Source of the DNA: a virus
Lineage: Duplodnaviria; Heunggongvirae; Uroviricota; Caudoviricetes
DNA: 64,000 nt
Strand: one strand, 5' to 3'
IMG/VR virus record: IMGVR_UViG_2877948078_000003
Shown here: positions 9,847 to 39,753 of the stretch, piece by piece
Layout of the letters: each line of letters opens with the position of its first letter
Numbering within the stretch: the stretch's first letter is position 1
Notes under the pieces: model-generated
The model's input: only the letters and a program-made list of their open reading frames with translations
The model's database searches: none
What the model was told of the DNA's origin: nothing
Translations under genes and position numbers: made by a program

Positions 9847-10545
9847 TTACTGCGAAAGTTTATTAATGGAAAGGAAACCGCCGAAATTAGCCACCATGCC
9901 GCGCATCTCACACCCGCGCATGCATTTACTGCATCTGTCCTTCCGGATATCCGTGGTGGGGTTGTCGAACTCATCCGCCACTGCCGGACCGTTATACCCG
10001 CATTCATCGCCCCGGTAATCCCACATACAGGTGTTCGCCAGCATGATGCGACCGGGAAACAGCGCACCGTCCGTCTCCGTCGGTGTCGCCAGCACAAACG
10101 AGGCCGTCATGGTCGTCAGCGCTGACATCTGCTCCACCACCCACCGGTCCGTCAGCTCCTGCTCCGGGTCGGCCTCAGGATTGCCTGCCACAAAATTCAC
10201 CGCATCCAGAAAACGCGCATACACCCGGCGACGGACCACCGTGGCACCCACCAGGCTCTGCAAATCCTCCGCCATCCCGGTGACAAGGCCGAAAAGATTG
10301 GACACCGTCAGCGACGGGCGGGCACTGCTGCCCTTTCCGTTCATCTCAAAGCCGCTGCCCTCAATCGGGTACGCCTCATACTTCCGCCCCTGCCAGGTCA
10401 CCGGCTCCCCTTTTTCATTCAGCTCATTGCAGAAAAAATACCGCTCACCGCCCTGCACCGTCAGGTCGATTTCCCAGAGCACCACCCGCGGTGACTGCTC
10501 TGACTTAACCGACTCGTTCAGGCTTGCTTCGTGAATATCCTGCAT
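9847..10545 (-). CDS. L: Minor tail protein L
   Basis: Matches lambda gpL (VVLWEIDLT, GGERYFFCNE, FGGFLSINKLSQ). Confidence 0.9.
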   Translation of the reverse strand: MQDIHEASLNESVKSEQSPRVVLWEIDLTVQGGERYFFCNELNEKGEPVTWQGRKYEAYPIEGSGFEMNGKGSSARPSLTVSNLFGLVTGMAEDLQSLVGATVVRRRVYARFLDAVNFVAGNPEADPEQELTDRWVVEQMSALTTMTASFVLATPTETDGALFPGRIMLANTCMWDYRGDECGYNGPAVADEFDNPTTDIRKDRCSKCMRGCEMRGMVANFGGFLSINKLSQ

Positions 10546-10874
10546 CAGTTCACCACCTGCTTAAACTCCGCGCTGAACTCAACGCGCAACATCCCGACCC
10601 GCGCAGACCACCCGGCACAGGTCACCTTTATCTGCCGGTATGCATAGGGTGGCTTCCACAAAAATGCCTTCCAGCCCCCGTGCTCTGCCAGGAACGCTTC
10701 CAGATGCCGGGCCTCCTCCCGGGTCACGGAAAGCATCACCCGGTATGTTTTCAGGTCAGCATTCAGCCCTGCCGCCATACGCTGTGAGTACCCGTCACCA
10801 AAACGCACTTCACGCACCGATGGCTGCGAGTTCACCTCCATATCCGGCTTCACTTTCCAGCGAAAGGTTTTCAT
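10545..10874 (-). CDS. M: Minor tail protein M
   Basis: Matches lambda gpM (MKTFRWKVKP..RVEFSAEF). Confidence 0.9.
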   Translation of the reverse strand: MKTFRWKVKPDMEVNSQPSVREVRFGDGYSQRMAAGLNADLKTYRVMLSVTREEARHLEAFLAEHGGWKAFLWKPPYAYRQIKVTCAGWSARVGMLRVEFSAEFKQVVN

Positions 10875-13450
10875 CGCCCGCTCCCTGATAACATACCGCC
10901 ATCACGCAACTGCAACCGGAGCTCATCCTGCGCCCCCTTGCGGGCCATGTCATACACCGCCTTCATCAGCTGCGGCCCCGCCTGTCCGTTGATACCGTCG
11001 TTCTGAATCACCACGTGATTGTTCTGATTAAAATTAATACCTTCCGCCCGCCGCATCTGCGCCGGACTTCCGGCACCACCCACATAACCCCCTTCCGCAT
11101 ATCCGCGCATCAGACGGTAAAGATTCCCCACGCCTATCCGGCTGGTTGCCTCCTTCGTGAAAACAAACTCCCCGCGGTGAACTATCCCCGCAGGCTCATA
11201 TTTGCCGCCCGTCCCCGTAAATCCGCCGGTCGCAAAATGAAAGTTCGCCGCCGCAGCCTCAATGGCCGTTCCCGTGGAAGCGGATGCGCCACCACCGAAA
11301 GCACCACCAATGGCGCTGCCGATACGCCCGACAATGCCCACCATGGCCTGTTTAAGCAGGATTTCTGTCATCATGGACAGCACCGAACGGGTGAATCCCC
11401 GCCAGTCTGCCTCTGCACCGGTCAGCATCGCCGCCATATTCTGTGCAATACCGTCAAAGGTCTGCGTGGCAGCACTTTTAACCTGCGAAAAACTGTCCGT
11501 CGCACTTTCCGCCCACTCCCCCCAGCCGGACTTCAGCCCGGCCAGCCAGTCACCGCGCAGCATGTCTTCATCCGCCCATGTCTGTTTCAGTGCCCCGGTG
11601 ACCTGTGCCAGCGCCTGCGGATTATCGCCGTACACGTCACGAAGACGCTGCGCTTCAGACTCCCGCTGTGCCTGACGGTCAGTGAGACCACGGGCTTTTG
11701 CGCTGATGGCGGCCTGCTTCGCGCTCTGCTGCTCTTCAAACCGCACCGCCTGCTGTGCCAGCTCATTCAGCCGTTTCTGGTATTCAACCTTGTCGCCCAG
11801 CTCAGCCAGCTGGCGTTTGTACTCCAGCGTCTCTTTCTCATGGGCCAGCAGGGATTTTTCCTGCCCGGATAACTGTCGTTTCGTGGCGGCCTCTTTCAGG
11901 ACTGCATACTGACTTTCCGCCTTCCATAAATCACGGCGCTGCTGGCTGATTTTCTCATTCGCACCGCTGTGCTTCTCCAGCGTCCGGAGCTCGGTTTCAA
12001 GCGCCAGCAGGGCAGCATGTGCCCGGTCTTCCTGGCGCTCACCGGCAGACACCTTCGCACCTGACGACTTCGGTTTTTTCAGCGTCGATTCATAATCCTT
12101 TTTCGCCGACGCCATCAGCGTGTTGTAATCCGCCTGCAGGATTTTCCCGTCTCTCAGGGCCCTGTTCAGTTCTTCCTGACGGGCGGTATATTTCTCCAGC
12201 GGCGACAGCAGGCGTTCATACGCTTTCTGCGCCTCTCCGGTATACTTCAGCTGTGACGCCTCACGCTCAGCCCTGTCCCTTGCCGCCAGTTCACCGGCTT
12301 TTTCCATATCCGACTGCAGCGTTGCCGCCGCCAGCCCCAGACGGGCATTTTCCCGGTCATCCCATGCACCCTGAAGGTTGGCCCGGAAAGAGGAGGTTTT
12401 ACCGCGGCGCTGGCTCCGGCTCTGGTACCACTGCCATTTTTTATCCGCCTCATCAAATGCCTTCTGCGCACTGGCGAGCATATCCGCTGAGGATTCAGGA
12501 CGACCGATATCCAGAATGGCATCCCACATCGATTTGAACGCCTTTCCTGTTTTATCCGCCCAGGTTTCCAGCGTCCCCATGTTCTCTTTCAGGCGGCGGG
12601 TCTGCTCATCAAAGCCTTTCGTGGCAGCATCGTTCGCCGCCTGTAAGGCACCGGCCTCGTCTCCGGAACGCTGCAGCTGTGCAACATACGCAATCTGCTC
12701 CGCCGTCACGTTGCGGAACTGGCGTGCCATCGCAGTCAGCCCCGACGTCGGGTCGGTGGTCAGTTTTCCGAAAGCCTCTGCAACCTTGTCCACCTCCACA
12801 CCGGAGGCAGACGCAAAACGCGCCACACTCTGGTTAATGGCATCAAACTGTTCACCACCACGCACACCGGCACTGACCAGGGCTGCCAGTGACTCTCCCG
12901 CCTGGTTAAACGTCAGCCCTGCCGCCTGCCCGGCTCTGGAGAGCGTCAGCATGCGCTCTGCCGTCAGTCCTGACTGATTACCGGAAAGAACCAGGGTTTT
13001 ATTAAACGCTGAAAGCGTGGAATCCCCCTGGTACCAGGCGTACGCCAGCGCACCGGTCGCCACCGCCAGCGAGGTGACCCCGACCATCGGCAGGCTGATC
13101 GCACCGGCAAGCCCCCGGAACATGGGGATCATCCCGCCGAATGAGTCCTTCACCTGACCGCCCTGTTGCAGCAGGATGAGCCAGGGATTCTGACCACCGG
13201 CAAGCTGCGTGGCCACGTCGGTGAACTGCATGGGTAGCATACGCATGGCGGCTTTATACTGCCCGACGGACATCCCGGCTTTTTGTGCAGCCAGCGCCTG
13301 GCGGCTCAGCCCCTGCTCAACAGCAGTGGCGGTTTTTCTGGCGTCAGTCTCCAGTCCTGAAAAATGACGCCTTACGCGGGTCATCTGCTCATCGAAACGG
13401 ACCGCATCCAGACTCAGGTCAATAACAAGATCACCAACCGGCTGGGACAT
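10871..13450 (-). CDS. H: Tail tape measure protein H
   Basis: 859 aa, colinear with lambda gpH. Confidence 0.9.
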   Translation of the reverse strand: MSQPVGDLVIDLSLDAVRFDEQMTRVRRHFSGLETDARKTATAVEQGLSRQALAAQKAGMSVGQYKAAMRMLPMQFTDVATQLAGGQNPWLILLQQGGQVKDSFGGMIPMFRGLAGAISLPMVGVTSLAVATGALAYAWYQGDSTLSAFNKTLVLSGNQSGLTAERMLTLSRAGQAAGLTFNQAGESLAALVSAGVRGGEQFDAINQSVARFASASGVEVDKVAEAFGKLTTDPTSGLTAMARQFRNVTAEQIAYVAQLQRSGDEAGALQAANDAATKGFDEQTRRLKENMGTLETWADKTGKAFKSMWDAILDIGRPESSADMLASAQKAFDEADKKWQWYQSRSQRRGKTSSFRANLQGAWDDRENARLGLAAATLQSDMEKAGELAARDRAEREASQLKYTGEAQKAYERLLSPLEKYTARQEELNRALRDGKILQADYNTLMASAKKDYESTLKKPKSSGAKVSAGERQEDRAHAALLALETELRTLEKHSGANEKISQQRRDLWKAESQYAVLKEAATKRQLSGQEKSLLAHEKETLEYKRQLAELGDKVEYQKRLNELAQQAVRFEEQQSAKQAAISAKARGLTDRQAQRESEAQRLRDVYGDNPQALAQVTGALKQTWADEDMLRGDWLAGLKSGWGEWAESATDSFSQVKSAATQTFDGIAQNMAAMLTGAEADWRGFTRSVLSMMTEILLKQAMVGIVGRIGSAIGGAFGGGASASTGTAIEAAAANFHFATGGFTGTGGKYEPAGIVHRGEFVFTKEATSRIGVGNLYRLMRGYAEGGYVGGAGSPAQMRRAEGINFNQNNHVVIQNDGINGQAGPQLMKAVYDMARKGAQDELRLQLRDGGMLSGSGR

Positions 13451-13895
13451 ATCTCACACCTCCGGAAATCCCCGCTGAAGCCATCATTAATGCAACATCA
13501 TCCTCGCTGACATCCACCACATCCGCAGAAGGTGAAATATCGCCCCCTCCCTCCCCACCGAACCGGACGCCTCCGGCAAGTCCTGCCGCTTTCTGCATCA
13601 GCATGTCTTCCTCATCCGGCCTCTCCGTCTGCGCTTCCTCACGCCGGGGGACAAGCAGACTGAAATCCGAGGGATGCATATCCGGATCGCAAAAAAACAG
13701 GCTGAGTACGGCGTACGTCAGCCCGGAAAAATGCATATCCAGCTGGGTATCGTGAAAATAATGCGTGCGGTAAAAACGTCGCCAGTCGGCATATTCGGTG
13801 GATGTCATCCCGGCAAGCATGGCGCGCCAGTCGGGTCTCCCCATCTCACGCGCCAGTCTGAGGGCAAAGTTCAGCTCGCCGTCGAAGACTTTCCC
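13431..13895 (-). CDS. T: gpT segment of the G-T tail assembly chaperone, made by -1 frameshift from G
   Basis: ORF in the -1 frame downstream of G; slippery heptamer GGGAAAG conserved as in lambda. Confidence 0.75.
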   Translation of the reverse strand, partial: GKVFDGELNFALRLAREMGRPDWRAMLAGMTSTEYADWRRFYRTHYFHDTQLDMHFSGLTYAVLSLFFCDPDMHPSDFSLLVPRREEAQTERPDEEDMLMQKAAGLAGGVRFGGEGGGDISPSADVVDVSEDDVALMMASAGISGGVRYVPAGW

Positions 13896-14302
13896 GCAGA
13901 AAAATCATCATCAGTCAGCGTGTTATTTTTCGCCACTTCAGTAATATCAGTATCCGGACGAACAGCTTCGATCATCCCGGACAGGCACAACACAACGTCT
14001 TCCGCCCGGGCAATGGCATCGGCAGGCCAGGTGGTGAGCACTTCCTGCTCTATCTTCATCACGGCCTCATTCATTGACGGTGACTGCGTTTTCTGTGGAT
14101 GGTTATGCCACAGGGACATCGCCACCAGAAACGCCCCGGTTCTGACAAGGTCTTCCACGCTCACCTGCAGGTTGCCGCTGGCTTCAGCCTCTTCTGCCCG
14201 CCGTTTCAGGAGGGCAAGATGCTCAATACGCTGCAGCGCAGACAGCTCAGAAAGCGTGACAGACACACCGTTATATTCAAATTGTTCTGTTTTCAGAAAC
14301 AT
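13871..14302 (-). CDS. G: Tail assembly chaperone G
   Basis: Matches lambda gpG (MFLKTEQFEYNGVSVTLSELSALQRIEHLAL). Confidence 0.9.
   Translation of the reverse strand: MFLKTEQFEYNGVSVTLSELSALQRIEHLALLKRRAEEAEASGNLQVSVEDLVRTGAFLVAMSLWHNHPQKTQSPSMNEAVMKIEQEVLTTWPADAIARAEDVVLCLSGMIEAVRPDTDITEVAKNNTLTDDDFSAGKSSTAS
13889..13895 (-). other. Programmed -1 ribosomal frameshift site (GGGAAAG) for G-T
   Basis: Heptamer read on the minus strand near the 3' end of G, same motif and position as lambda. Confidence 0.7.
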
Positions 14303-29477: not shown

Positions 29478-29726
29478 ATGAGTAGAAGAGAAGTTTCAGA
29501 TCACGATTGGCCGCCTGAAATCATCAAGGCGCGCTTACACATGGCTGGCTTATCACTGCGCTCTTTATCTTTAAAGGCTGGTTACAGCAGGGATTCGCTG
29601 AAAAGCGTATTACGTACTCCTTGCCGACCGTATCAGCAAATAATTGCTGATGCTCTTGGGGTATCGCCTGAAGAAATCTGGCCCAGTAGATACCAGGTTA
29701 AGAGCTATATGAGAAAGGCGTCATGA
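29478..29726 (+). CDS. ner: Ner-like DNA-binding regulator
   Basis: 82 aa; conserved QQIIADALGV..PEEIWPSRY C-terminal motif of the Ner/Nlp family. Confidence 0.8.
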   Translation: MSRREVSDHDWPPEIIKARLHMAGLSLRSLSLKAGYSRDSLKSVLRTPCRPYQQIIADALGVSPEEIWPSRYQVKSYMRKAS

Positions 29727-29727
29727 T

Positions 29728-31818
29728 ATGTATGTCATTGCAAAAGAACTGATTGGCGCGCCCGGAATGCCTGCTACAACAAAAGGTATTCGCCAGGCAT
29801 TACAACGTTACGTACAAGGGAAAAGCTGTTGTTCCCGTCGTCGCTCAGGCTCTAAAGCAACTGAATACAGCATCGACTGTTTACCTGAAGTGACGCAGCA
29901 GGCATTACGTGAACGTTATGCCCTGCAACTGATGACGCAAAAAGCCGATGAATCACCGGCTCCGGTGGTGACAAAGGCCAGACGCTCATCTGACGTGGTT
30001 GATGCGGTGGAGGCATATCGCGGATCACCACAACTGATGGTCGAACGCCTCAATGCCCTGACTGAAAACCAGCGCCAGGTGGCTGATGCACGAATCGCGA
30101 TCGTCAGCGAAGTGATGAAAGTCGCGCAACAACCCGGTTTCAGCTGCGCGAAGGCTATCCGGTTTATCGTTGACAACCTGGCACGTTCACAGCTGGACGA
30201 GCGCATTGTGGCAATGGTTGAGACGGCGAACGCCAAAAAGGGAAACAGCCGTGCGTTGAGTGAAATCACGCTGAAGCGATGGATTGCGGCCTTTAACAAG
30301 GCACAGAACGCCGCTGAACGCCTGCTTTTACTGGCACCGGGTAAACGCCAGGAAATAAAAGCCGAAGATATTAACTGGCTGCCCGAATTTCTGGCGCAGT
30401 ATCGCCAGTCAAACGGCCGACCAATGACCGAGGCTTACGAGGATTTTGTTGCTGAATGGCAGCACCGGCACGCTGATGAGCCTTATATGCTCGATATCAT
30501 GCCCTCTTATGACACCATTCGCCGCGCAATGAAGAAACTGCCGGAAGTGGTGAAACAAAAAGGCCGGGTGACAGGCAGTGAATACCGTCAGCTTGAGGGA
30601 TTCACGCGCCGCGACTGGTCCAGAATGCCGGTGAATTATGTCTGGATTGGTGACGGTCACGGCATGAAGATGAAATGCAGGCACCCGGTTCACGGGCGGC
30701 CATTTGCACCGGAAGTGACCTTTGTTATCGACGGTGGCACGCGCTTTGTGGTGGGCTGGAGCCTTGACCTGGCTGAAAATGTTTTCGCCGTAGCCGGTGC
30801 CATACAGCACGGTATTCGCCATCACGGCAAACCGTTTCTGTATTACTCGGATAACGGTTCGGGGGAAACCGCCGACATCCTGGATAAGGAGGTTGTGGGG
30901 ATCCTGCCGCGCCTGGGGATTAATCACCCGACAGGGATTGCCGGTAATCCGCAGGGGCGAGGCATTATCGAACGGCTTAACCGCACATTACCGATGCGCA
31001 TAGCCCGTAAATACCGCACCTATTTCGGGAAAGGTGCAGATCGCGAGACGTTACGCAAAACCAACCGCGATTTACGCTCGGCATTCACTGCCCTGCAACA
31101 GGACAAACGGCTGAACGCCCGGCAGCAGTCAGCGATGCGTGATTTACCGTCCTGGCCTGAACTGATTGATGCCATCCGTGATGGTGTCGAGTGGTACAAC
31201 AACCGGCCGCACAGCGGATTGCCGGTGAAACCGAACGGTAAGCATTACAGCCCGGCGGAATACAGGAAAAAACGCCTGGCAGAAGAGGACACGGAAATTG
31301 AATGGCTGTCCGATGTTGAGCTGCGGGATATGTTCCGGCCGATGGTGGAACGCCCGGTAAGACGCTGTGAAATACGCTGGCTGAATAATATTTACTACGC
31401 GCCCGAGCTGCGTGATGAGCATGGCCGTAAGGTGCTTATCAGCTATGACATTCATGATGCCGAACGAATTACCGTGCGTCGCCTGGATGGCAGCGTGATT
31501 TGCGAGGCGGTATGGGACGGCAATAAACGCGAAGCCTTCCCGGTCAGCGCGGAATACTACAAACAGCAGCAACGCCTTAAAGGCATGCGTAAACGCGCAG
31601 AGGAAAAAATCCGTGATGCCGAGGATGAGGTGGTCAACGTGCTGGAGCACAAGCCGCAAGAGCCCTGGCTGGAAAACATCTATCGCCCGGTAGGTAATAC
31701 GGTGGCCGTTCAGCAACCTGCCGTTGATGATGAGCCTGATGAAGAATACGAGCGTAATTTCCAGCGGGGATTGCAGTTGCTCGAAGCGAAATTAAAAGAA
31801 AATGACCCGCTGGCCTGA
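29728..31818 (+). CDS. A: Mu-type DDE transposase A
   Basis: 696 aa; position after ner; overall resemblance to MuA. Confidence 0.85.
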   Translation: MYVIAKELIGAPGMPATTKGIRQALQRYVQGKSCCSRRRSGSKATEYSIDCLPEVTQQALRERYALQLMTQKADESPAPVVTKARRSSDVVDAVEAYRGSPQLMVERLNALTENQRQVADARIAIVSEVMKVAQQPGFSCAKAIRFIVDNLARSQLDERIVAMVETANAKKGNSRALSEITLKRWIAAFNKAQNAAERLLLLAPGKRQEIKAEDINWLPEFLAQYRQSNGRPMTEAYEDFVAEWQHRHADEPYMLDIMPSYDTIRRAMKKLPEVVKQKGRVTGSEYRQLEGFTRRDWSRMPVNYVWIGDGHGMKMKCRHPVHGRPFAPEVTFVIDGGTRFVVGWSLDLAENVFAVAGAIQHGIRHHGKPFLYYSDNGSGETADILDKEVVGILPRLGINHPTGIAGNPQGRGIIERLNRTLPMRIARKYRTYFGKGADRETLRKTNRDLRSAFTALQQDKRLNARQQSAMRDLPSWPELIDAIRDGVEWYNNRPHSGLPVKPNGKHYSPAEYRKKRLAEEDTEIEWLSDVELRDMFRPMVERPVRRCEIRWLNNIYYAPELRDEHGRKVLISYDIHDAERITVRRLDGSVICEAVWDGNKREAFPVSAEYYKQQQRLKGMRKRAEEKIRDAEDEVVNVLEHKPQEPWLENIYRPVGNTVAVQQPAVDDEPDEEYERNFQRGLQLLEAKLKENDPLA

Positions 31819-31889
31819 AATAAAAAAATAACCCGAGCGGCGACTCAGGTTATTTGATTAAACAAGGTATCAAATGAGAGGTTAATAAT

Positions 31890-32822
31890 ATGACTGATAT
31901 TAACGATGTAATCAAGACCATTGATGAACTTATTGATGGCGGCGTACTGACGCAGTATGCCATCGCCAGAGAGGCGGGAATTTCCGACGGCACATTATCG
32001 GCTTTCCGTAAGGGAAAATATAAAGGCGATAACGCTGCTGTGGCTGCTTCCCTGCGCTCCTGGTATGAGAACTGGAATAAACAAAGCGCACTGCCGGAAC
32101 CGCCGCAGTTTGTGGAAACGCAGACAGTCCAGGAGCTGCGCGCACTGTTTCAGGCGGTTCGTCTGATGGGCTGTATTAACGTTATTGTGGGCGTACCGGG
32201 TGTGGGTAAAACGGCCACCGCCCGTAATTACTGCCAGGAGCAACCAAACACCTGGATGATCACCCTGTCTCCCGCGCATTCCAGCGTCACGGAGTGTCTG
32301 CTGGAGCTGGCCGATGCGCTGGGGATTGATTACACCCGCGCGAACAAAGGGGCATTATCCCGCGCCATCCGCCGTCGCCTGATGGGAACGCGCGGACTGG
32401 TGATTGTGGATGAGGCGGATCATCTTGGTATTGACGGTCTGGAGCAACTCCGGGCAATTCAGGACGCCACGGGGATCGGGATGGTGCTTATTGGTAACCC
32501 GCGCGGACTGTTTAAAGGTGGACGCCGCGCCTTTGATGATTTATCGCGCCTGTTCAGCCGTCTTGCCCGTACAAAACAACTTCGCAGGGCTAAAAAGGCG
32601 GATGTGCTGGCTATTGCCAGGGCATGGGGTATCAGTGGTGAGGCCGAGCTGGCTGTCATGCAGGCTATTGCTGAAAAACCGGGAGCATTACGTGTTCTGA
32701 CACATACGCTTAACCAGGCGTGGCTCACAGCCAGCGGTGAAGGCGCGGCGCTGACAGAAAAACATATTAATGCGGCCTTTAAAGAGGTTTACACCAACCC
32801 TGAATTACTCTCGCAGGTGTGA
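31890..32822 (+). CDS. B: Mu B-like AAA+ ATPase (transposition target DNA activator)
   Basis: Walker A GVPGVGKT, Walker B VIVDEADH; directly after the transposase. Confidence 0.85.
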   Translation: MTDINDVIKTIDELIDGGVLTQYAIAREAGISDGTLSAFRKGKYKGDNAAVAASLRSWYENWNKQSALPEPPQFVETQTVQELRALFQAVRLMGCINVIVGVPGVGKTATARNYCQEQPNTWMITLSPAHSSVTECLLELADALGIDYTRANKGALSRAIRRRLMGTRGLVIVDEADHLGIDGLEQLRAIQDATGIGMVLIGNPRGLFKGGRRAFDDLSRLFSRLARTKQLRRAKKADVLAIARAWGISGEAELAVMQAIAEKPGALRVLTHTLNQAWLTASGEGAALTEKHINAAFKEVYTNPELLSQV

Positions 32823-32824
32823 TT

Positions 32825-33046
32825 ATGGCTGTATTTAATATTCCTGATATTTACGGACGCTTTTACCTGGTGAATTTCGATAACGTCAAAGCAGTCTCCA
32901 TGTCTGACAGTGAAGAATGTGGCGATTTACTCTTTGAATTTAATGATCGCACCCGAATGGCAATATCGGCAGGACTTGATCGTGAAGGTGCGAAAGAAGC
33001 TTACAGCAATATTTGTCGCTTTATCGGTGCAAGACGGGTTAGTTAA
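32825..33046 (+). CDS. Hypothetical small protein in the Mu kil position
   Basis: ATG overlaps the B stop; no recognisable motif. Confidence 0.45.
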   Translation: MAVFNIPDIYGRFYLVNFDNVKAVSMSDSEECGDLLFEFNDRTRMAISAGLDREGAKEAYSNICRFIGARRVS

Positions 33047-33058
33047 ACGAGAGGTTAT

Positions 33059-33478
33059 ATGAAAATGCAGATACAGCAGGAAATCAATGTTCTCCACAGC
33101 TTTCGAGAGTTTAACGTCGATGACGGGGAGGTTTGTGATTATATCTATGAATTGATGGACGGTGATGGTGTGTGTTTTCTGTATATAGACCTGTATCAGT
33201 GGTATGCAGACATGCAACTTGATTCCATCAGACGCCGTTTTAATCATGAATGCTTTGATGTGGATGTATGGGAAAGCCTGTGCTTTGGTTTTCTGATTAT
33301 GGATGATTATCGCCAGGGGTGGCGACACGGTTACTCCATTCTTCGTGCAATCATGCGTGGCGAAACCCGAAAAATGCCGGGGATGGGTAAAGTTAATCGA
33401 GGCTTCCTGTCAGAGCTGGCTGCATTGCGCATGAATCCATTACTGATACAACCGGAGTTCACTTATGAATTTGTTTGA
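33059..33478 (+). CDS. Hypothetical acidic protein
   Basis: 139-aa ORF, tight spacing within the early operon. Confidence 0.5.
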   Translation: MKMQIQQEINVLHSFREFNVDDGEVCDYIYELMDGDGVCFLYIDLYQWYADMQLDSIRRRFNHECFDVDVWESLCFGFLIMDDYRQGWRHGYSILRAIMRGETRKMPGMGKVNRGFLSELAALRMNPLLIQPEFTYEFV

Positions 33479-33695
33479 TTCACTGAATAACGCCCGTCGC
33501 CTGACCGAGCTTGCCGGTGCGGTACTGGAACGCAGTAAGCGCTATCCGCAACGCTTTGCACTGAAAACCACGCCGCCGGTAGGTGAGGTTCAGGGGAGTG
33601 GTGAGGAAATTGAAATCACCGTTAAGACCAACGGCCTGCGCCGCCGTGTGAAAGCCACCCGCATAAGCGGATGCACGGTTTACTGGGAAGTATGA
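33465..33695 (+). CDS. Hypothetical protein
   Basis: 76-aa ORF overlapping neighbours. Confidence 0.45.
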   Translation: MNLFDSLNNARRLTELAGAVLERSKRYPQRFALKTTPPVGEVQGSGEEIEITVKTNGLRRRVKATRISGCTVYWEV

Positions 33696-33769
33696 AGTTG
33701 CTTCATGGTTCGGCTCTGTCATCAGGTCAGATGCCGGGTCAGTTATCCGAACAAAACGAGAGCCAGAGG

Positions 33770-34042
33770 ATGAGTAAAGTCGTACGCATTATTTTCGAAT
33801 ACAAGGAAGATGTTATCTGCAAAAACTCTGATGGCAGCACGCACAGAGGGGTAAGTCTGGATATACGTTCAACCGGAATAAAGAAGAAAGATAATGGACC
33901 CGCCATGATTTTTGGGGTGGTTATGCTGGCAGAAAGCAGAAACTTCGCAGAGCTTGTGGCAATGAAAGCCAGTGCATTCATGAAAGACAGGGGTATGGCT
34001 TCCGGGGTTATTAACGGTAATGAATTTAATCAGCAGGGGTAA
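33770..34042 (+). CDS. Hypothetical protein, paralog 1 (MSKVVRIIFEY..)
   Basis: AGAGGA SD; paralogous to the next gene. Confidence 0.5.
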   Translation: MSKVVRIIFEYKEDVICKNSDGSTHRGVSLDIRSTGIKKKDNGPAMIFGVVMLAESRNFAELVAMKASAFMKDRGMASGVINGNEFNQQG

Positions 34043-34046
34043 TTCC

Positions 34047-34340
34047 ATGAGCAAAGTACGCGTTATTTTTGAATTTGAGCATGTTTCGCATGACGAAAAG
34101 CTGGCAGGCAATGACTGTGTTGAAGTGCATGAAAAGATTGGAGTGAATGTGAAAACAGAACGTGATACGGAGAACAGCCCGACGTCACTCTGTGATGTTT
34201 ATGCAAGTATTCTCCAGTATCACAGTCCTGCAATTATTCAGCTTCTCTCAGCGGAATTTCAGGCATCTGTACAGGCTTTTGGGGCGGATGCCATCATTAA
34301 ACGCCACCGTGTGCATAAAGCATCAGGCACGCTGCAATAA
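34047..34340 (+). CDS. Hypothetical protein, paralog 2 (MSKVRVIFEF..)
   Basis: AGGGG SD; tandem paralog of the previous gene. Confidence 0.5.
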   Translation: MSKVRVIFEFEHVSHDEKLAGNDCVEVHEKIGVNVKTERDTENSPTSLCDVYASILQYHSPAIIQLLSAEFQASVQAFGADAIIKRHRVHKASGTLQ

Positions 34341-34350
34341 GGAAAACAAA

Positions 34351-34881
34351 ATGGTTAAACGTGTTACAAAATTAAAGGCCGCAGCCGAGGCCGCACCACA
34401 GACCCGCGAAGAAGTCAGCCGCGATATCCGCACTCTGGGCGATATTCAGCGAGAGGCGCTGCGCCTGGAAACGGCAATGAATGATGAAGTGGCAGAAATC
34501 ACCGCCCGTTATACGCCGCAGATTGAAAACCTTAAAAAAGAAATCAAAGTGCTTTTTAAAGGGATTCATGACTGGTGTAAAACCAACCGCAATGAGCTGA
34601 CGAACGGCGGCGAAACCAAAACTGCCAATCTGACCACCGGAACGGTGTCATGGCGGCTGGGAAATCCATCATGCAGCGTCAGTCGTGATGTGGAAGGTGT
34701 GATTGAAATGCTGCGTCGTATGGGGCTTGAGCGCTTCATCCGCACGAAAGAGGAAGTGAATAAGCAAGCTGTCCTGGCGGAGCCGGATGCGGTGAAAGGG
34801 ATTGCTGGTATTAAGGTGAATAAAGGCGCTGAAAGTTTTCATGTCGAGCCTTTTGAACAGGACGCCGGACTGAATAAATAA
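34351..34881 (+). CDS. gam: Host-nuclease inhibitor Gam (Ku-like DNA end-binding)
   Basis: Strong similarity to Mu Gam (GDIQREALRLETAMNDEVAEIT, ELTNGG..KTANLTTGTVSWR, ERFIRTKEEVNK). Confidence 0.85.
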   Translation: MVKRVTKLKAAAEAAPQTREEVSRDIRTLGDIQREALRLETAMNDEVAEITARYTPQIENLKKEIKVLFKGIHDWCKTNRNELTNGGETKTANLTTGTVSWRLGNPSCSVSRDVEGVIEMLRRMGLERFIRTKEEVNKQAVLAEPDAVKGIAGIKVNKGAESFHVEPFEQDAGLNK

Positions 34882-34965
34882 CACCGCATTAAATCTTTAA
34901 ATATCACATCGTTTTAATTATGGCGCTTGCGTCAGGGGACTGCTCGCGCCTGAATGAGGCATATC

Positions 34966-35544
34966 ATGAGTATAAAATATCGTTATTTTAAAATGAATGA
35001 GCGCGATTCCCGTCATTATCACAGGGAATGGCTTGATTGCGCTGGCAGGGAGCGCAAGAAATTGATTGATGATTTTCTCAGTAATCATAGAGCTAAAGGA
35101 TACCTTTACTTCTGGTGTTATGGGCATATTTTTGTCACATCAATACTGGTTCATGAGGATGTTGATGTCGGAAGAAATAAGCGGGTGCTGTCTGATAAAT
35201 TTGATGAAGATGGCCGCGTTTTATTTTCAGTTAAGCCCGACCGCAGATTCCGAGAGGGAAAAAAACTGAACAAAGCACTGAATATCTTAAACGAGAAGTT
35301 AAAACAGCTTCCGTCATTCAGTACCTGGATGGTTAATAAACTGGACTGCTATTTTGAGGTTTTTGGTGTCAGCAACGGCCGCACAGTTATGGCGTGCTCT
35401 TCTGCCGGGTTCTATGGCGACAAAGGGGCTGTTGTGGTTCGTATTCCTGTCGGTGAATCAGATAATGCCTTTTCCCCTGAAAAGCTGCATCCGTCATTGA
35501 TGGCAATCAAGCATTCCGAATTCATCGCAATAACGGAGGAATAA
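34966..35544 (+). CDS. Hypothetical protein
   Basis: ORF with GAGG SD at second ATG; first gene of a tightly coupled four-gene block. Confidence 0.5.
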   Translation: MSIKYRYFKMNERDSRHYHREWLDCAGRERKKLIDDFLSNHRAKGYLYFWCYGHIFVTSILVHEDVDVGRNKRVLSDKFDEDGRVLFSVKPDRRFREGKKLNKALNILNEKLKQLPSFSTWMVNKLDCYFEVFGVSNGRTVMACSSAGFYGDKGAVVVRIPVGESDNAFSPEKLHPSLMAIKHSEFIAITEE

Positions 35545-35547
35545 TTC

Positions 35548-36081
35548 ATGATTGATGCAAAAGTGCTTGAAGGGGTTAAAAACTGGCTGAGTATTTACGG
35601 GCGTCTGACTTGCGGTGTTCTGGCTGAAAAAATGAATATGCCGCCATCCTCGATGGTTTATTTTCTGCGTGATGCGGTTGATGCAGGCGTGCTGACGGAA
35701 CGTAACGGTTTTTATGATATTCCGCGTCCCCGCCCGGTGCAGCCGGTTCGTCGCAAATGCAGCCAGGAATGTGCGGCTGATGATGTTCAGTGGTGCAGCT
35801 TCAGAAAGTCCCTGCCGTGGATTGAGGGGCATGATATTCCGTCGATGGCGTGGGAATTTGCTCAGGGCGTTCTGACCTGTGAAACCGTTTATGTGGTGGC
35901 TGAAGTTGATGAGCAGGCCATGAAAGAAGGCGTGCCCCAGTTTGTGATGGCGTATATCGACATTCGCCTGGGTGTCATCATCTGCGGTTTAAGCGGCTGG
36001 AATATCACCGCGCGTGTTCTGCGCTACCTGATTGTTGACCGGACAGCAGCGCCTGCCGGGATATCTGCGGAGGTGGCGTAA
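35548..36081 (+). CDS. Hypothetical protein with N-terminal winged-helix-like segment
   Basis: 177-aa ORF, 3-nt gap to the upstream gene. Confidence 0.5.
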   Translation: MIDAKVLEGVKNWLSIYGRLTCGVLAEKMNMPPSSMVYFLRDAVDAGVLTERNGFYDIPRPRPVQPVRRKCSQECAADDVQWCSFRKSLPWIEGHDIPSMAWEFAQGVLTCETVYVVAEVDEQAMKEGVPQFVMAYIDIRLGVIICGLSGWNITARVLRYLIVDRTAAPAGISAEVA

Positions 36082-36596
36082 TGTTCTTTAAAACATCAAA
36101 CCCTTCCGCGCTGGCTGCGTGGCAAAAATACCAGCAGGACTGCCAGAAAGTTAAGGATGAGGCAAAGCGCCTTGAGGCTGTGCTGAATGTTGCGTGCCGG
36201 TCGGTATTTGAATTCAGTATCAGTGGCTTTTGTTTTAAGGGGCTGCGTTTTACGGATGACAAATATCCTTTTCATCGTGATTTATGGCGAAAACCAACTG
36301 CGTCGAATGGCTGGAGCTGCACACCGCGCACATCACGTATTCCCAAAGCCCTGCGCGTTGCCTCTGACGAACTTAACAGTCTGTGGCGTGAATATTCGCC
36401 CGTCACGTATGCCAGAACCGATGCCCTGTTGTTCTGGCTGGGCATTGATTTCTCGGCAATCCTGTTTGGCCCTGTGGAGTGGTTCTGCGTTGACGATGTG
36501 ATTTACCTTCAGTGCGGCGTAAAACCCGCAAAACAGAAAATGACCGAAATTCTGTCTGATGAGTTTTATGCTGCTGAAAAGCGAGTCAGGGGGTGA
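36081..36596 (+). CDS. Hypothetical protein
   Basis: 171-aa ORF; TAATG stop-start overlap with the upstream gene. Confidence 0.5.
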   Translation: MFFKTSNPSALAAWQKYQQDCQKVKDEAKRLEAVLNVACRSVFEFSISGFCFKGLRFTDDKYPFHRDLWRKPTASNGWSCTPRTSRIPKALRVASDELNSLWREYSPVTYARTDALLFWLGIDFSAILFGPVEWFCVDDVIYLQCGVKPAKQKMTEILSDEFYAAEKRVRG

Positions 36597-36599
36597 TGC

Positions 36600-37151
36600 A
36601 TGATGATATTACAACCCATGGGGCGAAAAGGCCGTGCACCCGCTCATGTTCGCGCATGGACACCTGAAGAAGATGCGCTGCTGATTGCGCTTTATCCATC
36701 CACCCCGGTTAAGGATATTGCTGTCAGGATAAAAAGAAGTTTCTGGGGTGTACATAACCGGATTGTTTTATTACGCGGTACTTACCCGGAGTTGCTCAAA
36801 TGCAAACGTCCAAGATTTAAACATGATGAAGATAAATTTATCCGAAAAAATGCCAGAACGATGACCGGTAAGCAAATAGGAGAATATCTGGGGCGAGACC
36901 GGGATTCTGTCCACAATCGGGCGCGATATATTGGCGTAAGCATGAAAAAATACGGAGAATTGCTGCCCTTCACCCGTATACCTGACGATGATGTTCATCT
37001 TATTCGTGAATTACGGGATGCTGAATCACCACGACGTCTTACCTTCCGGGAAATAGGCGAGAAATTTGAATTATCCGAGAGTACGGTGAATTTTATTTAT
37101 CACCATCGCCGGACTGCCGAGGACGCTGTATTACGGGAGTTAACGCCATGA
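36600..37151 (+). CDS. Hypothetical protein with three HTH-like repeats
   Basis: 183-aa ORF; repeated HTH-like segments. Confidence 0.5.
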   Translation: MMILQPMGRKGRAPAHVRAWTPEEDALLIALYPSTPVKDIAVRIKRSFWGVHNRIVLLRGTYPELLKCKRPRFKHDEDKFIRKNARTMTGKQIGEYLGRDRDSVHNRARYIGVSMKKYGELLPFTRIPDDDVHLIRELRDAESPRRLTFREIGEKFELSESTVNFIYHHRRTAEDAVLRELTP

Positions 37152-37333
37152 TAAAGAGACTTGTATTTTTCGCAATTTTCGTTCCGGTGTTGGGGGTTGG
37201 TTTTATATTTGCGATTACAGGAAACCTGTCCATGATGCCAGATATTTGGTTCTTTATCAGGATGTCGCTCTTCCTGTTTATTATGAATCTTCTTATCGAC
37301 ATATATATCCGTATTACTGGAAAACATAAATGA
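37148..37333 (+). CDS. Small hydrophobic (membrane) protein
   Basis: 61-aa ORF, two hydrophobic segments, overlapping stop-start. Confidence 0.35.
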   Translation: MIKRLVFFAIFVPVLGVGFIFAITGNLSMMPDIWFFIRMSLFLFIMNLLIDIYIRITGKHK

Positions 37334-37704
37334 GAAAAATCACGTCCTTGTCAGAGTTACAGGAGATGAATATGAGTATTGAATTAAGATCGTCTTATGA
37401 GTATCGCAAATTTCTTATCGCCGGAGGCATGAAACCGGAAGATGTGGAAAAAATCGTTTCTTTTATGGATAAGGAATGTGACAAGCGGGATGTGTCAGAA
37501 ATTATTATGGATGACATGATTCTGGATTCAGTCGTGGCGTTAAGTCCGTTATGGATTGTGCATTCTCTTGCGGAAATTGCCAAAGGCACCGATAAACAGG
37601 CAGCTGTTGCTGCCCTTCAGACGCTTAATGAAATGCGTATATCTCCACGCCCGACATTAATACAGATGATTTTGTCCAGTATGGAGGATAAAGCAAATGA
37701 ATAG
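37330..37704 (+). CDS. Hypothetical protein
   Basis: 124-aa ORF in operon context. Confidence 0.45.
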   Translation: MRKITSLSELQEMNMSIELRSSYEYRKFLIAGGMKPEDVEKIVSFMDKECDKRDVSEIIMDDMILDSVVALSPLWIVHSLAEIAKGTDKQAAVAALQTLNEMRISPRPTLIQMILSSMEDKANE

Positions 37705-37894
37705 TCTACCCGCTGGATGGGCGCGCCCTCTGATGGCTAAGAAGTATCATTTTTTTAAAACTGGCGATAATATCAGTATATGTAGGCGGTGGTTATATCT
37801 GGCTCATAATCGCGAGCCGGATACATTTGAAAGCCCTGATGACTGTGCCGAATGTCGCAGAAGACTGAATAAGGAGAAAGATAATGGACAGTAG
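37697..37894 (+). CDS. Hypothetical small protein with Cys pair (CAECRRR)
   Basis: 65-aa ORF. Confidence 0.35.
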   Translation: MNSLPAGWARPLMAKKYHFFKTGDNISICRRWLYLAHNREPDTFESPDDCAECRRRLNKEKDNGQ

Positions 37895-38180
37895 TTCGCA
37901 GTTGTTCTGGTGTTTATATATCACATCGTTTTTCGGTGCATTCGTCATTACACGATGGCTGTGCCGGAAAGTTATCAGTATTTTTCATAAAAAATACCTG
38001 ATTGGGCTGGCGGCGACTTCTCTGATTAATGCACTTGCCAGATATCATAAGGGGGAATACTACTCAAGAATAAAAACTGATGATGGTTTTAATATTTTTG
38101 TGATTCCTCCGGAGTATCGGGTTCAGCTCGATCGGGAAAGTAATATCTATCATATCAGCAGGAGTGTTGATACAGCATGA
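37884..38180 (+). CDS. Hypothetical membrane protein
   Basis: 98-aa ORF with N-terminal TM segment. Confidence 0.4.
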   Translation: MDSSSQLFWCLYITSFFGAFVITRWLCRKVISIFHKKYLIGLAATSLINALARYHKGEYYSRIKTDDGFNIFVIPPEYRVQLDRESNIYHISRSVDTA

Positions 38181-38686
38181 GAGGGAAACTGATATCCGCT
38201 ATTCATGTGGCAAAGCGCGAGCTTGCCCTGGATGATGAGACCTACACATTCGTACTACTGGCAGCCACCGGCAAAACCAGTTGCCGGGATATGTCACCCG
38301 GTGAGTTATCCCGCGTGCTGGATGTTTTCAAAAAACGCGGTTTTAAAGTGCGTCAGAAACCGGTTAACCGGGCCTTAAAACCGGGTACGGTGACCGCCAA
38401 AATTCGCGCCATCTGGAAAGTGATGCACCGGCAGGGCTTTATCTCTGATGGTGCGGAAACCGCTCTTAACCGCTGGGTGAAATCGCAGACGGCCGCGCAG
38501 AACGGCGGCGAAGGTGTGGCAAACTGGCAGTGGCTGGAGCAACACCCCGCCCTGGCCTCAGATGTGCTGGAGCGTCTCAAGCGATGGCACCGCCGCAAAA
38601 TGCTGGCCGCGATGGGAATGCCCGAACGCACGCTGATGGGGTATGACGCCGTTTGCAGGCAGTATGAAAAATCACTTCCCCGTTAA
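38177..38686 (+). CDS. gemA: GemA-like regulatory protein
   Basis: Position before Mor/C; N-terminal ISAIHVAKRELALDDETY resembles Mu gp16. Confidence 0.7.
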   Translation: MRGKLISAIHVAKRELALDDETYTFVLLAATGKTSCRDMSPGELSRVLDVFKKRGFKVRQKPVNRALKPGTVTAKIRAIWKVMHRQGFISDGAETALNRWVKSQTAAQNGGEGVANWQWLEQHPALASDVLERLKRWHRRKMLAAMGMPERTLMGYDAVCRQYEKSLPR

Positions 38687-38755
38687 CCCCAAATCCCGCC
38701 ACAACGCGGGATTTTTATTTTAAACTTACCGGGAACGCGAGAACCGGAGGCTGAT

Positions 38756-39181
38756 ATGGCAGAAACTCAGATGAGCATGTTTGGTGGTGACAGTGAGCAA
38801 CTGCACGCCCTTATCGACCGCCTTGATGACATCCCTGATGATGTTCTCAAAAAGAACTGGCCGCGGACCCTGTCAGAACTGGTTGAAGTCACCGGCGCAG
38901 AACTTCAGCGTCAGGGGATTGAGCCGGTACTGGCCGGTAAACTGGCACGCAAGGTGGCTGCGGCTCAGGCAGCCTATATGGGCGGACGGGGTTATTACCT
39001 GCCGGTCGGGGAATCTCTCTTTGCCGAGCTGCGAAACAATGAGATATTTTCGCGCTGGGACCGGGGCGAGAAGATTGAATCCCTTCGCCGCCATTACCGG
39101 ATGTCAGAAACCCAGATTTATACCGTCATACGTGAACAGCGCCGTCTGCATCTGGCAAGAACGCAACCGCCACTTTTCTGA
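38756..39181 (+). CDS. mor: Mor/C-family transcription activator
   Basis: 141 aa; position between gemA and lys; C-terminal HTH. Confidence 0.7.
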   Translation: MAETQMSMFGGDSEQLHALIDRLDDIPDDVLKKNWPRTLSELVEVTGAELQRQGIEPVLAGKLARKVAAAQAAYMGGRGYYLPVGESLFAELRNNEIFSRWDRGEKIESLRRHYRMSETQIYTVIREQRRLHLARTQPPLF

Positions 39182-39252: not shown

Positions 39253-39753
39253 ATGCCAAAACTCCCCGCACCACTGCGTAAAAAGCTGATTGCCCTTGTT
39301 CTGGCCGGTGCCGGGACGTTCACGATTGCCACGCATTACACCGGTTACTGGGAAGGGAAAGAAAACTCCACGTATATCGATCCCACCGGTACACCCACCA
39401 TCTGTTACGGCCATACCGGCCCGGATGTGAAACCGGGTATGACCCTGACAGATGAAGAATGCCTGGAACTACTGGAAAAGGACATGAAATGGGCCTTTGC
39501 GGCCATTGATCGGCGTGTTCAGGTGCCGCTTACCCGTGGTCAGACGGTGGCGCTGGCTTCGTGGATCTTCTGGGCCGGTGAAACGAACTTTCGCAACTCC
39601 ACGCTTCTGCGCCTGATCAATGCCGGGCAGATGCCCGCGTCCTGTAAGCAGTATATCCGCTGGATTTATTCAAAGGGGGTGAAACTTCCCGGCCTTGAGG
39701 CCCGCCGTTCGGCGGATGAATGGTTATGTCGCTACGACTTGCCGAAAGTCTGA
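39253..39753 (+). CDS. lys: SAR endolysin (lysozyme)
   Basis: SAR-like N-terminus LIALVLAGAGTFTIA and E..D..T lysozyme pattern. Confidence 0.8.
   Translation: MPKLPAPLRKKLIALVLAGAGTFTIATHYTGYWEGKENSTYIDPTGTPTICYGHTGPDVKPGMTLTDEECLELLEKDMKWAFAAIDRRVQVPLTRGQTVALASWIFWAGETNFRNSTLLRLINAGQMPASCKQYIRWIYSKGVKLPGLEARRSADEWLCRYDLPKV

Follow-up and report, generated by a model that had tools for sequence, protein, structure and literature searches.

The semi-essential (SE) region of phage Mu, which extends from kil/gp5 to gemA/gp16 (4.3-8.8 kb of NC_000929), comprises 14 ORFs, lies within the long early transcript and has a toxic effect on the host (PMC3325207), and its functions are largely unknown (PMC3820752). 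It is dispensable for plaque formation and affects phage yield and host killing (PMC3325207), and infected cells regain viability when it is deleted (PMC3325207; PMC3820752). The Mu gene order is kil-gp6-gp7-gp8-gp9-gam-gp11-gp12-gp13-gp14. In Shigella phage SfMu and the Yersinia vB_YpM Mu-type phages a DUF5420 gene is located between gam and gp11 and the rest of the SE region is in the Mu order, with gp12 missing from vB_YpM_3; ORF11 of SfMu has been described as having no homologue in Mu or D108 (PMC4406740).

The sequence analysed here (the window) is a stretch of 64,000 nucleotides from a virus of the Caudoviricetes (IMG/VR record IMGVR_UViG_2877948078_000003). Between B (31890-32822, + strand; Pfam Phage-MuB_C, 48% identical to MuB) and gemA (38177-38686, + strand) there are 14 small ORFs, numbered o1 to o14, all on the + strand and separated by -14 to +84 nt. 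This agrees with the count of about 14 genes in the earlier note, and RefSeq lists the same set for an E. coli prophage that is 95% identical. A PHROG family was found for each of the 14, and at least nine have a counterpart in Mu, in Mu-type phages or in a Pfam family. The block shares its strand with ner, A and B and is bounded by B and gemA, and homologues of kil, gam and gemA occur amid about a dozen small ORFs. Very probably, the interval represents the SE early genes of a transposable prophage of the Mu family, belonging to the E. coli O157 Sp18 type. The block is real, ordinary and of a kind already known; it is unsurprising because most of its 14 genes match already catalogued phage Mu early genes. 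The earlier note had recognised Gam only, but Kil, gp8, gp7-like, gp11, gp12, gp9-like and DUF5420 proteins are recognisable as well. Assignment of the ORFs to known Mu early functions had been named there as the outcome that would count against novelty, and half of this was found: the ORFs do correspond to known Mu early genes, but described roles exist for Kil, Gam and GemA only, and the other catalogued Mu counterparts are mostly uncharacterised.

As in Mu, the block lies between B and gemA on one strand and has about 14 small ORFs (PMC3325207), and the families Kil, gp7, gp8, gp9, Gam, gp11, gp12 and GemA are common to both, together with an identical 1-nt overlap of gp11 and gp12. Unlike in Mu, the order here is o1, gp8-like, kil, two gp7-like genes, gam, DUF5420, gp11, gp12, gp9-like and o11-o14. 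Further differences from Mu are the lack of gp6, gp13, gp14 and the antisense gp15, the duplication of the gp7-like gene, a third, N-terminal Myb-type repeat in the gp9-like protein, the additional genes o1, DUF5420 and o11-o14, and a terminator before a single Mor/C-family gene. Since the gene order is unlike that of Mu and transposase A is only 22% identical to MuA, this phage is a distant cousin of Mu and not a Mu variant.

Sp18-type E. coli prophages, among them that of RM9245 (NZ_CP044314) and Mu-like insertions carried by the Stx phages LC727895 and LC727881, match 78-96% of the interval at 92-95% nucleotide identity, and their annotated genes and gene order are the same as here. They differ in cassettes, namely in the alleles of o2, o4/o5 and o14 (51% identical in RM9245), and in LC727895 genes like Mu gp13/gp14 replace o11-o14. 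The region was matched at 80-99% identity in 232 of 5426 complete E. coli genomes; no identical record was present in the complete-genome collection, the best match being 95%. Among 60 related loci, each with B and gemA and all retrieved via gp11, gp11 was present in 60, a gp7-like gene in 59, gam in 55, gp9/o10 in 55, gp12 in 42 and DUF5420 in 33. The genes o2, o7 and o11-o14 are present, absent or exchanged for other cassettes among relatives, and such gene presence/absence and cassette swaps bear out the description of this interval as an accessory and variable Mu-like early block.

The first gene, o1 (32819-33046; 75 aa; phrog_3375, E 3e-41; pN/pS 0.27), has a GTG start overlapping the B stop, where RefSeq takes the ATG at 32825. 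It has no counterpart in Mu itself, and a second copy of its family follows kil in some relatives. The next, o2 (33059-33478; 139 aa), is a homologue of Mu gp8 (E7): the gp8 family of Mu matches it in hhalign over 103 columns (P 6e-11, probability 97%), and BLASTP gives 32% over 76 aa; it is found in some close relatives and missing from others. The Kil family is represented by o3 (33465-33695; 76 aa), which matches phrog_2679 "Kil protein" (E 3e-39) and Mu Kil by hhalign (P 4e-6), has a pN/pS of 0.08, and has a copy in relatives for which Pfam Kil_protein (PF26843) is recorded. The Kil family has been described as a septation inhibitor or host killing function.

Two gp7/E6-like genes follow in tandem: o4 (33770-34042; 90 aa; phrog_4107, E 6e-55), which is the more divergent, and o5 (34047-34340; 97 aa; phrog_2230, E 1e-37), with the N-termini MSKVVRIIFEY and MSKVRVIFEF, respectively. 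The earlier note took them for a tandem paralog pair on the basis of these starts. Direct comparison by BLASTP gives a weak match (24% over 54 aa, E 0.19), and alignment of o4 with o5 in one hhalign run is limited to 16 N-terminal columns. Profile comparison backs the common ancestry: o4 matches the pooled gp7-like family with P 2e-6 (probability 89.5%, 72 columns) and the pool without o5 with P 3.8e-5, compared with about 6e-4 for the strongest of the unrelated pairs in a set of about 500 family pairs. For o5, the genes that occupy the gp7 position in Mu-type phages give P 1e-9 to 4e-14; against Mu gp7 itself, o5-type genes match only weakly (P 4e-4). These sequence comparisons support a shared ancestry of o4 and o5 as gp7/E6-like genes, the link of o4 to gp7 being moderately supported. 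The o4 family is very narrow: a search of 1.8 billion representatives gave about six genuine relatives at E <= 0.001, and the remaining matches were long repetitive proteins. At one related locus (L031) o4 is absent and an o5-type gene directly follows the o4 leader.

Gam (34351-34881; 176 aa) was correctly identified in the earlier note; it matches Pfam Phage_Mu_Gam (PF07352) at E 2e-39, has 54% identity to Mu Gam and is a double-strand DNA end-binding protein shielding ends from host exonuclease. In the spacer between gam and o7 there is a conserved 20-nt motif, TTTAAATATCACATCGTTTT (34896-34915, + strand), with a second copy within o14 (37913-37932). Two matches in the window compare with 0.01 expected, and none of 100 shuffles reached two. 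The spacer copy is kept, regardless of the next gene, in Sp18-type relatives whose sequence spans the spacer. After this spacer, o7 (34966-35544; 192 aa; phrog_2260) matches DUF5420 (PF17457) with E 1.6e-13 and 51.3 bits against a cut-off of 26, over residues 83-189 only. No counterpart of o7 is present in Mu, and the DUF5420 allele located likewise in SfMu and vB_YpM is only about 23-27% identical to it. Among relatives there are two alleles about 23% identical, and some relatives lack o7 or have a replacement.

The orthologue of Mu gp11, o8 (35548-36081; 177 aa; 67% identical over 177 aa), has a C-terminal Gp11_C domain (PF25754; E 5e-40, 136 bits against a cut-off of 27), and its N-terminal part of about 60 residues is winged-helix-like, with sub-threshold matches only to HTH_20/HTH_24. 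The orthologue of Mu gp12, o9 (36081-36596; 171 aa; 55% identical over 169 aa, E 4e-68), belongs to Pfam Phage_Mu_Gp12 (PF26885), which is found on the precomputed records of all 79 homologues and of the relatives' copy of the gene. The o8 stop and the o9 ATG overlap by a single base, precisely the arrangement of Mu, and the o9 structure model is confident, with no solved structural relative found. The gp9-like gene, o10 (36600-37151; 183 aa; phrog_323), was said in the earlier note to carry three HTH-like repeats, and the AlphaFold model (AF2, pLDDT 82) accordingly has three-helix bundles at residues 22-59, 75-110 and 129-169, similar to each other by hhalign (repeats 1 and 2, P 4e-15; repeats 2 and 3, P 4e-5). 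Two of these domains appear Myb/SANT-like, and one sigma-r4/AsnC-like; repeats 1 and 2 bear a W/F-x2-[ED][ED]D signature. Its homologue in Mu, gp9 (E8), is shorter and corresponds to repeats 2-3 alone (BLASTP of residues 66-168, E 2e-8, 30% identical). Like the tandem three-helix repeats of Myb/SANT proteins (PF00249/PF13921), the bundles are separate in the model, and homologues 41-58% identical match Pfam Myb_DNA-binding. Unlike members of those families, o10 itself reaches no Pfam gathering score and has sub-threshold HTH matches, and its third repeat is nearer to the AsnC/sigma-r4 HTH (cf. the sigma-70 region 4 type). A Foldseek search with the whole chain gave no significant match (best E 0.13). 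In the public assembly collection, 145 indexed blocks contain exactly this protein. Both o10 and gp11 (o8) are predicted DNA binders.

The distal genes are o11 (37148-37333; 61 aa; pN/pS 0.33), which has two predicted membrane-spanning segments (Kyte-Doolittle, residues 5-23 and 36-54) and is swapped for other cassettes in many relatives; o12 (37372-37704; 110 aa; phrog_1988, E 5e-44, residues 15-123); o13 (37697-37894; 65 aa; phrog_2358, E 2e-32; pN/pS 0.17); and o14 (37884-38180; 98 aa; phrog_17269, E 9e-66; pN/pS 0.43), which has a hydrophobic N-terminus and two alleles about 51% identical among relatives. For o12 the likely start is 37372, with AGGAG 6 nt before it and a RefSeq call of 110 aa, and a start at 37330 would give 124 aa; its homologues are located between gp13 and gp14 in D108-type phages.

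Could several of these ORFs be chance open frames in an AT-richer spacer and not genes? Four are only 61-76 aa long, GC falls to 35-44% in o11-o14, and eight of the 14 (o1, o2, o4, o5, o11-o14) have no Pfam match in the local library. Each ORF, however, has its PHROG family and is conserved in frame in relatives, pN/pS values of 0.08-0.48 across all 14 indicate purifying selection, and independent gene callers annotate the ORFs in public assemblies. The conservation data effectively refute this explanation, which is scarcely credible. A second proposal concerns the genes at 34966-37151, which the earlier note singled out as a tightly packed cluster of four: that DUF5420, gp11, gp12 and the triple-HTH gene form one translationally coupled module with products in a complex. 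The junctions are indeed tight (+3, -1 and +3 nt, with a GGAGG-type Shine-Dalgarno for each start), the gp11/gp12 overlap of 1 nt is identical in Mu, two of the four products are predicted DNA binders, and colinear motifs are common to DUF5420 and gp12, which flank gp11. Such junctions (-11 to +3 nt), however, run on into o11 and, with a likely gap of 38 nt at o12, as far as gemA, so that the four genes do not stand apart. At the gp11-bearing loci gp12 is present in only 42 of 60 and DUF5420 in only 33 of 60, gp11 is alone at many loci, the Mu homologue of o10 is upstream of gam and not beside gp12, and the similarity between DUF5420 and gp12 is not significant (hhalign P 0.02-0.035). A module of this kind is very unlikely. 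As a cluster, the four genes are not conserved, the 1-nt overlap of gp11 with gp12 being the only part that is, and the tight packing of the block is no more than expected and normal in a phage operon.

It has also to be considered whether the block is chiefly an anti-defence or counter-immunity island, in which the small variable genes (o1, o2, o4/o5, o7, o11-o14) inhibit host defences and turn over in an arms race. Among near-identical prophages, genes are present, absent or replaced by other alleles in the manner of cassettes, and the small proteins have no solved relatives, as would suit such an island; Mu-like Gam and GemA, which adjoin these genes, act on host DNA-end processing and on RecBCD-type functions and are themselves sensed by Gabija (PMC12407980), and host killing by Mu is relieved once the SE region is deleted (PMC3325207). 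Against this, no sequence or structural likeness to characterised anti-defence proteins was found: a PADLOC scan of 10 block proteins for known defence systems gave only a sub-threshold homing-endonuclease-like DNA-binding match in o10 (E 0.0098), and sequence searches with block proteins against solved structures gave no matches. The pN/pS range is that of ordinary purifying and not diversifying selection. The core (Kil, gp7-, gp8- and gp9-like, Gam, gp11 and gp12) is common to this phage and Mu despite the deep divergence of the transposase, which speaks for accessory housekeeping roles and not for fast-evolving counter-defence. We regard a mainly anti-defence block as rather improbable.

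We prefer to read the interval as an SE-type early block, which would form the distal two-thirds of one long early operon of ner, A, B, the 14 accessory genes and gemA. To judge from the gene arrangement, transcription most likely starts from an early promoter (Pe) upstream of ner, although a consensus promoter scan gave no enrichment over shuffles. The transcript is most likely closed by a strong intrinsic terminator-like hairpin just after gemA (38691-38714, + strand; 9-bp stem with 5 G-C pairs and a T-run). Because each gene has its own ribosome-binding site and stop and start codons overlap or nearly abut, ribosomes can pass from gene to gene on the polycistronic RNA, and this translational coupling would be normal phage operon economy and not a special four-gene device. 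Replication-stimulating and host-modulating activities have been mapped genetically to this part of Mu in the older Mu literature, and the coupled gp11-gp12 pair would act together, plausibly in such activities. By homology to characterised proteins, Kil blocks host cell division and kills the host, Gam caps double-strand DNA ends against RecBCD, and GemA, the last gene product of the operon (gp16 family; Pfam GemA, PF06252, E 1e-29; 43% identical to Mu GemA), perturbs host DNA transactions. The gene content is a mosaic of Mu gene families in a different order, plus the exchangeable cassettes o1, DUF5420 (o7) and o11-o14, which include predicted small membrane proteins. Cassette loss in relatives is consistent with dispensability of o2, o7 and o11-o14, and the variable cassettes would be dispensable accessory functions, exchanged via recombination between related prophages.

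The block of small genes between B and gemA is the semi-essential (SE) early region of a Mu-type phage, and it belongs to a Mu-like prophage whose left end occupies the window from about 28.7 kb onward. The following genes are arranged there: a repressor gene on the minus strand (28757-29362), ner (29478-29726), transposase A (29728-31818), B (31890-32822), fourteen small ORFs on the plus strand (o1 to o14), gemA (38177-38686), a single activator gene of the Mor/C family (38756-39181), and a lysozyme gene (39253-39753). Because A is only 22% identical to MuA, although B is 48% identical to MuB, the phage is a distant cousin of Mu. The SE region of Mu has been known for decades. It likewise has 14 ORFs, which share the long early transcript of A and B and are largely uncharacterised, and host killing after infection is due to it (PMC3325207, PMC3820752); Gam and GemA of Mu-like phages disturb DNA-end processing in the host (PMC12407980).

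Lambdoid phage tail genes (tape measure, gpG/T and minor tail proteins) at 10000-14000, within the stretch 1-28500 that is lambdoid more generally, match E. coli SI-NP020 at 100% identity. The Mu-like prophage therefore adjoins or sits within a lambdoid prophage, a position comparable to that of the recorded Mu-like inserts also carried by Stx phages LC727895 and LC727881. Because of this upstream identity, and because the interval matches E. coli prophages, the host is E. coli and the prophage one of the O157 Sakai Sp18 type. This type has been treated in the literature (PMC2669165, PMC4406740), and the content on Sp18 of a 2026 paper is prophage excision only. Among related loci, A genes of Mu type or Sp18 type were found with either type of SE region, and this mixture indicates modular exchange at the left end. 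A good part of the 71-nt spacer between A and B is taken up by a hairpin with a 13-bp stem and flanking T/A runs (31826-31855), which is terminator-like on the minus strand by scan score.

The feature is real and correctly located, and it is ordinary and already known, being present many times in annotated genomes. At 92-95% identity the interval matches the Mu-like inserts of two Stx-converting phages, as well as prophages that 232 of the 5426 complete E. coli genomes contain. In the best match, E. coli RM9245 (95% identity over 96% of the interval), the same genes are annotated by RefSeq, and a public assembly collection lists an identical o10 protein in 145 blocks. An accessory early region of this kind is to be expected in the prophage family concerned, which about 4% of complete E. 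coli genomes carry. The novelty suggested in the earlier note is not supported, the anti-defence role that it raised is a hypothesis, and the discovery value is small, since RefSeq gene calls and Pfam and PHROG families already cover these genes.

All 14 ORFs were found in place, and they are real genes, with pooled pN/pS values of 0.08-0.48 against 4-41 homologues apiece from related loci. Although only Gam, between o5 and o7, had been held recognisable, each of the 14 could be placed in a PHROG family (mostly labelled "function unknown"), and the following identities were assigned: o2 to Mu gp8/E7 (hhalign P 6e-11), o3 to the Kil family (phrog_2679 at E 3e-39, Mu Kil by hhalign at P 4e-6, and a recorded Pfam Kil_protein entry for this gene in relatives), o7 to Pfam DUF5420 (51 bits, where the cut-off is 26), o8 to Mu gp11 (67% identical; the Pfam Gp11_C domain at E 5e-40), o9 to Mu gp12 (55% identity; Pfam Phage_Mu_Gp12), and o10 to Mu gp9/E8 (match over residues 66-168; clusters with gp9). 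The unnamed gene o12 has homologues between gp13 and gp14 in D108-type phages. Sequence and profile searches of o7, o8, o9 and o10 against all PDB chains gave nothing at E < 0.07. Among 10 proteins scanned, NCBIfam gave zero matches and PADLOC nothing meaningful. A full-text literature search for DUF5420 gave no papers, and literature searches for Mu gp11 and gp12 gave nothing relevant. Two membrane-spanning segments are predicted in o11 (37148-37333), and o14 (37884-38180) has a hydrophobic N-terminus; both are predicted small membrane proteins within the early operon.

A translationally coupled cluster of four genes, o7 to o10 (34966-37151), had also been described, and its junctions are indeed tight (+3, -1 and +3 nt). 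Because the packing continues beyond o10 (o10/o11 -4, o12/o13 -8, o13/o14 -11 and o14/gemA -4 nt), to single out these four genes from so dense an operon is arbitrary. The ATG of o12 at 37372 has AGGAG 6 nt upstream, RefSeq and other callers start there (110 aa), and a protein numbered from the longer 37330 start matches its PHROG only from residue 15 on; o12 therefore probably starts at 37372 rather than 37330, leaving a 38-nt gap after o11 as the one likely break in the overlapping run. The early transcript likely ends at a strong hairpin with a T-run (38691-38714), five bases past the gemA stop. This terminator separates gemA from the sole Mor/C-family gene, which the lysozyme gene directly follows. 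Since that gene is closer to Mu C (39% identity) than to Mor (27%), and lies past the terminator and before lysozyme, the phage seems to be without the separate Mor-then-C middle step of Mu, with its activator gene beyond the early terminator. An Rfam scan of 28-40.5 kb found no RNA family. The 20-nt motif TTTAWATATCACATCGTTTT occurs twice, in the gam-o7 spacer (34896-34915) and in the N-terminal codons of o14 (37913-37932), against 0.01 matches expected, and two copies were seen in none of 100 shuffles. The spacer copy is kept after gam, whatever gene follows, in Sp18-type relatives with the spacer covered, and by our reading the motif resembles an IHF-type site.

For comparison of related loci, eighty viral contigs and one Citrobacter genome with a gp11 homologue were fetched, the latter being the only locus found by a gp11 scan of genome contigs. 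B and gemA both occur, 2.5-6.3 kb apart, in 60 loci, a count that takes in the window as well as reference records of Mu and E. coli. As gp11 served to find the loci, its presence in 60/60 is by construction; gp7-like genes, gam, gp9/o10, gp12 and DUF5420 are present in 59, 55, 55, 42 and 33 loci, respectively. Near-identical prophages either have o2 or lack it, and where it is absent a second o1-family gene follows kil. For DUF5420 there are two alleles that share about 23% identity, and some loci lack the gene; a 73% allele of o10 exists among relatives, and o11-o14 are often swapped for Mu gp13/gp14-like or other cassettes. In this comparative map Kil, gp7-like, gp8-like, gp9-like, Gam and gp11 make up the conserved core, with gp12 less consistent, and o1, o2, DUF5420 and o11-o14 are exchangeable cassettes. 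The general placement in an accessory, variable early block was right, whereas the four genes are not a conserved unit, because DUF5420, gp12 and o10 vary in presence or allele; of their junctions, the 1-nt gp11-gp12 overlap (TAATG) alone is common to Mu and the window.

The supposed tandem paralogues o4 (33770-34042) and o5 (34047-34340) start with MSKVVRIIFEY and MSKVRVIFEF, and their mutual identity is only 21-24%. With profiles from related loci, o5 matched gp7-position genes of Mu-type phages (P 1e-9 to 4e-14). A deep search with o4 over 1.8 billion representatives gave a tiny family with one useful new member, the divergent homologue P0123, which was added to the o4 profile. This family matched the pooled gp7-like family (P 2e-6, probability 89.5%, 72/90 columns), and also the pool minus the o5 subfamily (P 3.8e-5); in a control with about 500 pairs of unrelated local families the best P was about 6e-4 over 9 columns. 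A join of o4 to o5 by single-linkage clustering through the related locus L031 was rejected, since what the sequences shared was an upstream leader, non-coding but translated as if it were protein, and the test was rerun on trimmed sequences after this link was dropped. In L031 itself o4 is lost and the o4 leader runs straight into an o5-type gene, the arrangement that recombination between the starts of o4 and o5 would give; the first ten codons of these two genes are about 87% identical in DNA. We accept o4 and o5 as probable divergent paralogues of a gp7/E6-like family with moderate confidence, because one profile run aligned only the 16 N-terminal columns and Mu gp7 itself is matched weakly (P 4e-4). 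Near-tandem or tandem duplication of small early genes is not unique to this pair, since relatives without o2 (L005, 5840-6118; L004, 8126-8395; and similar loci) have a second o1-family copy just after kil.

The three HTH-like repeats reported for o10 were upheld. Its AlphaFold model (24-sequence alignment, pLDDT 82) has three separate three-helix bundles (residues 22-59, 75-110 and 129-169), and profile similarity makes repeats 1 and 2 clearly (P 4e-15), and repeats 2 and 3 probably (P 4e-5), homologous. Since Mu gp9 (99 aa) covers repeats 2-3, o10 is gp9 plus an extra Myb-type repeat. Homologues at 41-58% identity match Pfam Myb_DNA-binding and several also sigma-70 region 4; o10 of the window is itself under every Pfam threshold, and Foldseek of its model against PDB gave generic multi-HTH proteins only (best E 0.13). 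We infer that o10 binds DNA.

The model of gp12 is confident (pLDDT 92.5), and a viral structure library gave unnamed phage proteins at TM 0.84 and 0.74, with weaker matches in actinophages (Gordonia and Mycobacterium phages); the predicted fold is an uncharacterised, phage-borne one for which no solved relative exists. DUF5420 (o7, 34966-35544) and gp12 (o9, 36081-36596) flank gp11, are of similar length, and have colinear motifs ([YF]FK near the N-terminus, P[DR]RR, and EIxxSEFxA at the C-terminus). These motifs are suggestive of paralogy, but hhalign of the two profiles was not significant in three attempts (P 0.02-0.035), and we treat paralogy only as a lead; a further locus scan added zero new diversity. 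The two may be very distant paralogues. The BFVD hits A0A7G8Z7V2 and A0A6G5YHC7 may be DUF5420 proteins. It is conceivable, though we think it improbable, that gp12 and gp11, the latter a winged-helix joined to Gp11_C, make up a conserved module of two translationally coupled proteins, to which DUF5420 might belong as a very distant paralogue of gp12. If so, the module could underlie one of the Mu early functions (stimulating replicative transposition or modulating the host, for example) that to our knowledge were mapped genetically and never assigned to genes; a new activity in host takeover or counter-defence would be just as possible.

The residual value of this block is as a reminder that most genes of the host-toxic SE region of Mu are still without a molecular function. 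The comparative map of core genes and cassettes points to the best candidates for a functional screen, and gp12, with its confident model and no solved relative, and the triple-HTH gp9 variant would be reasonable first targets.
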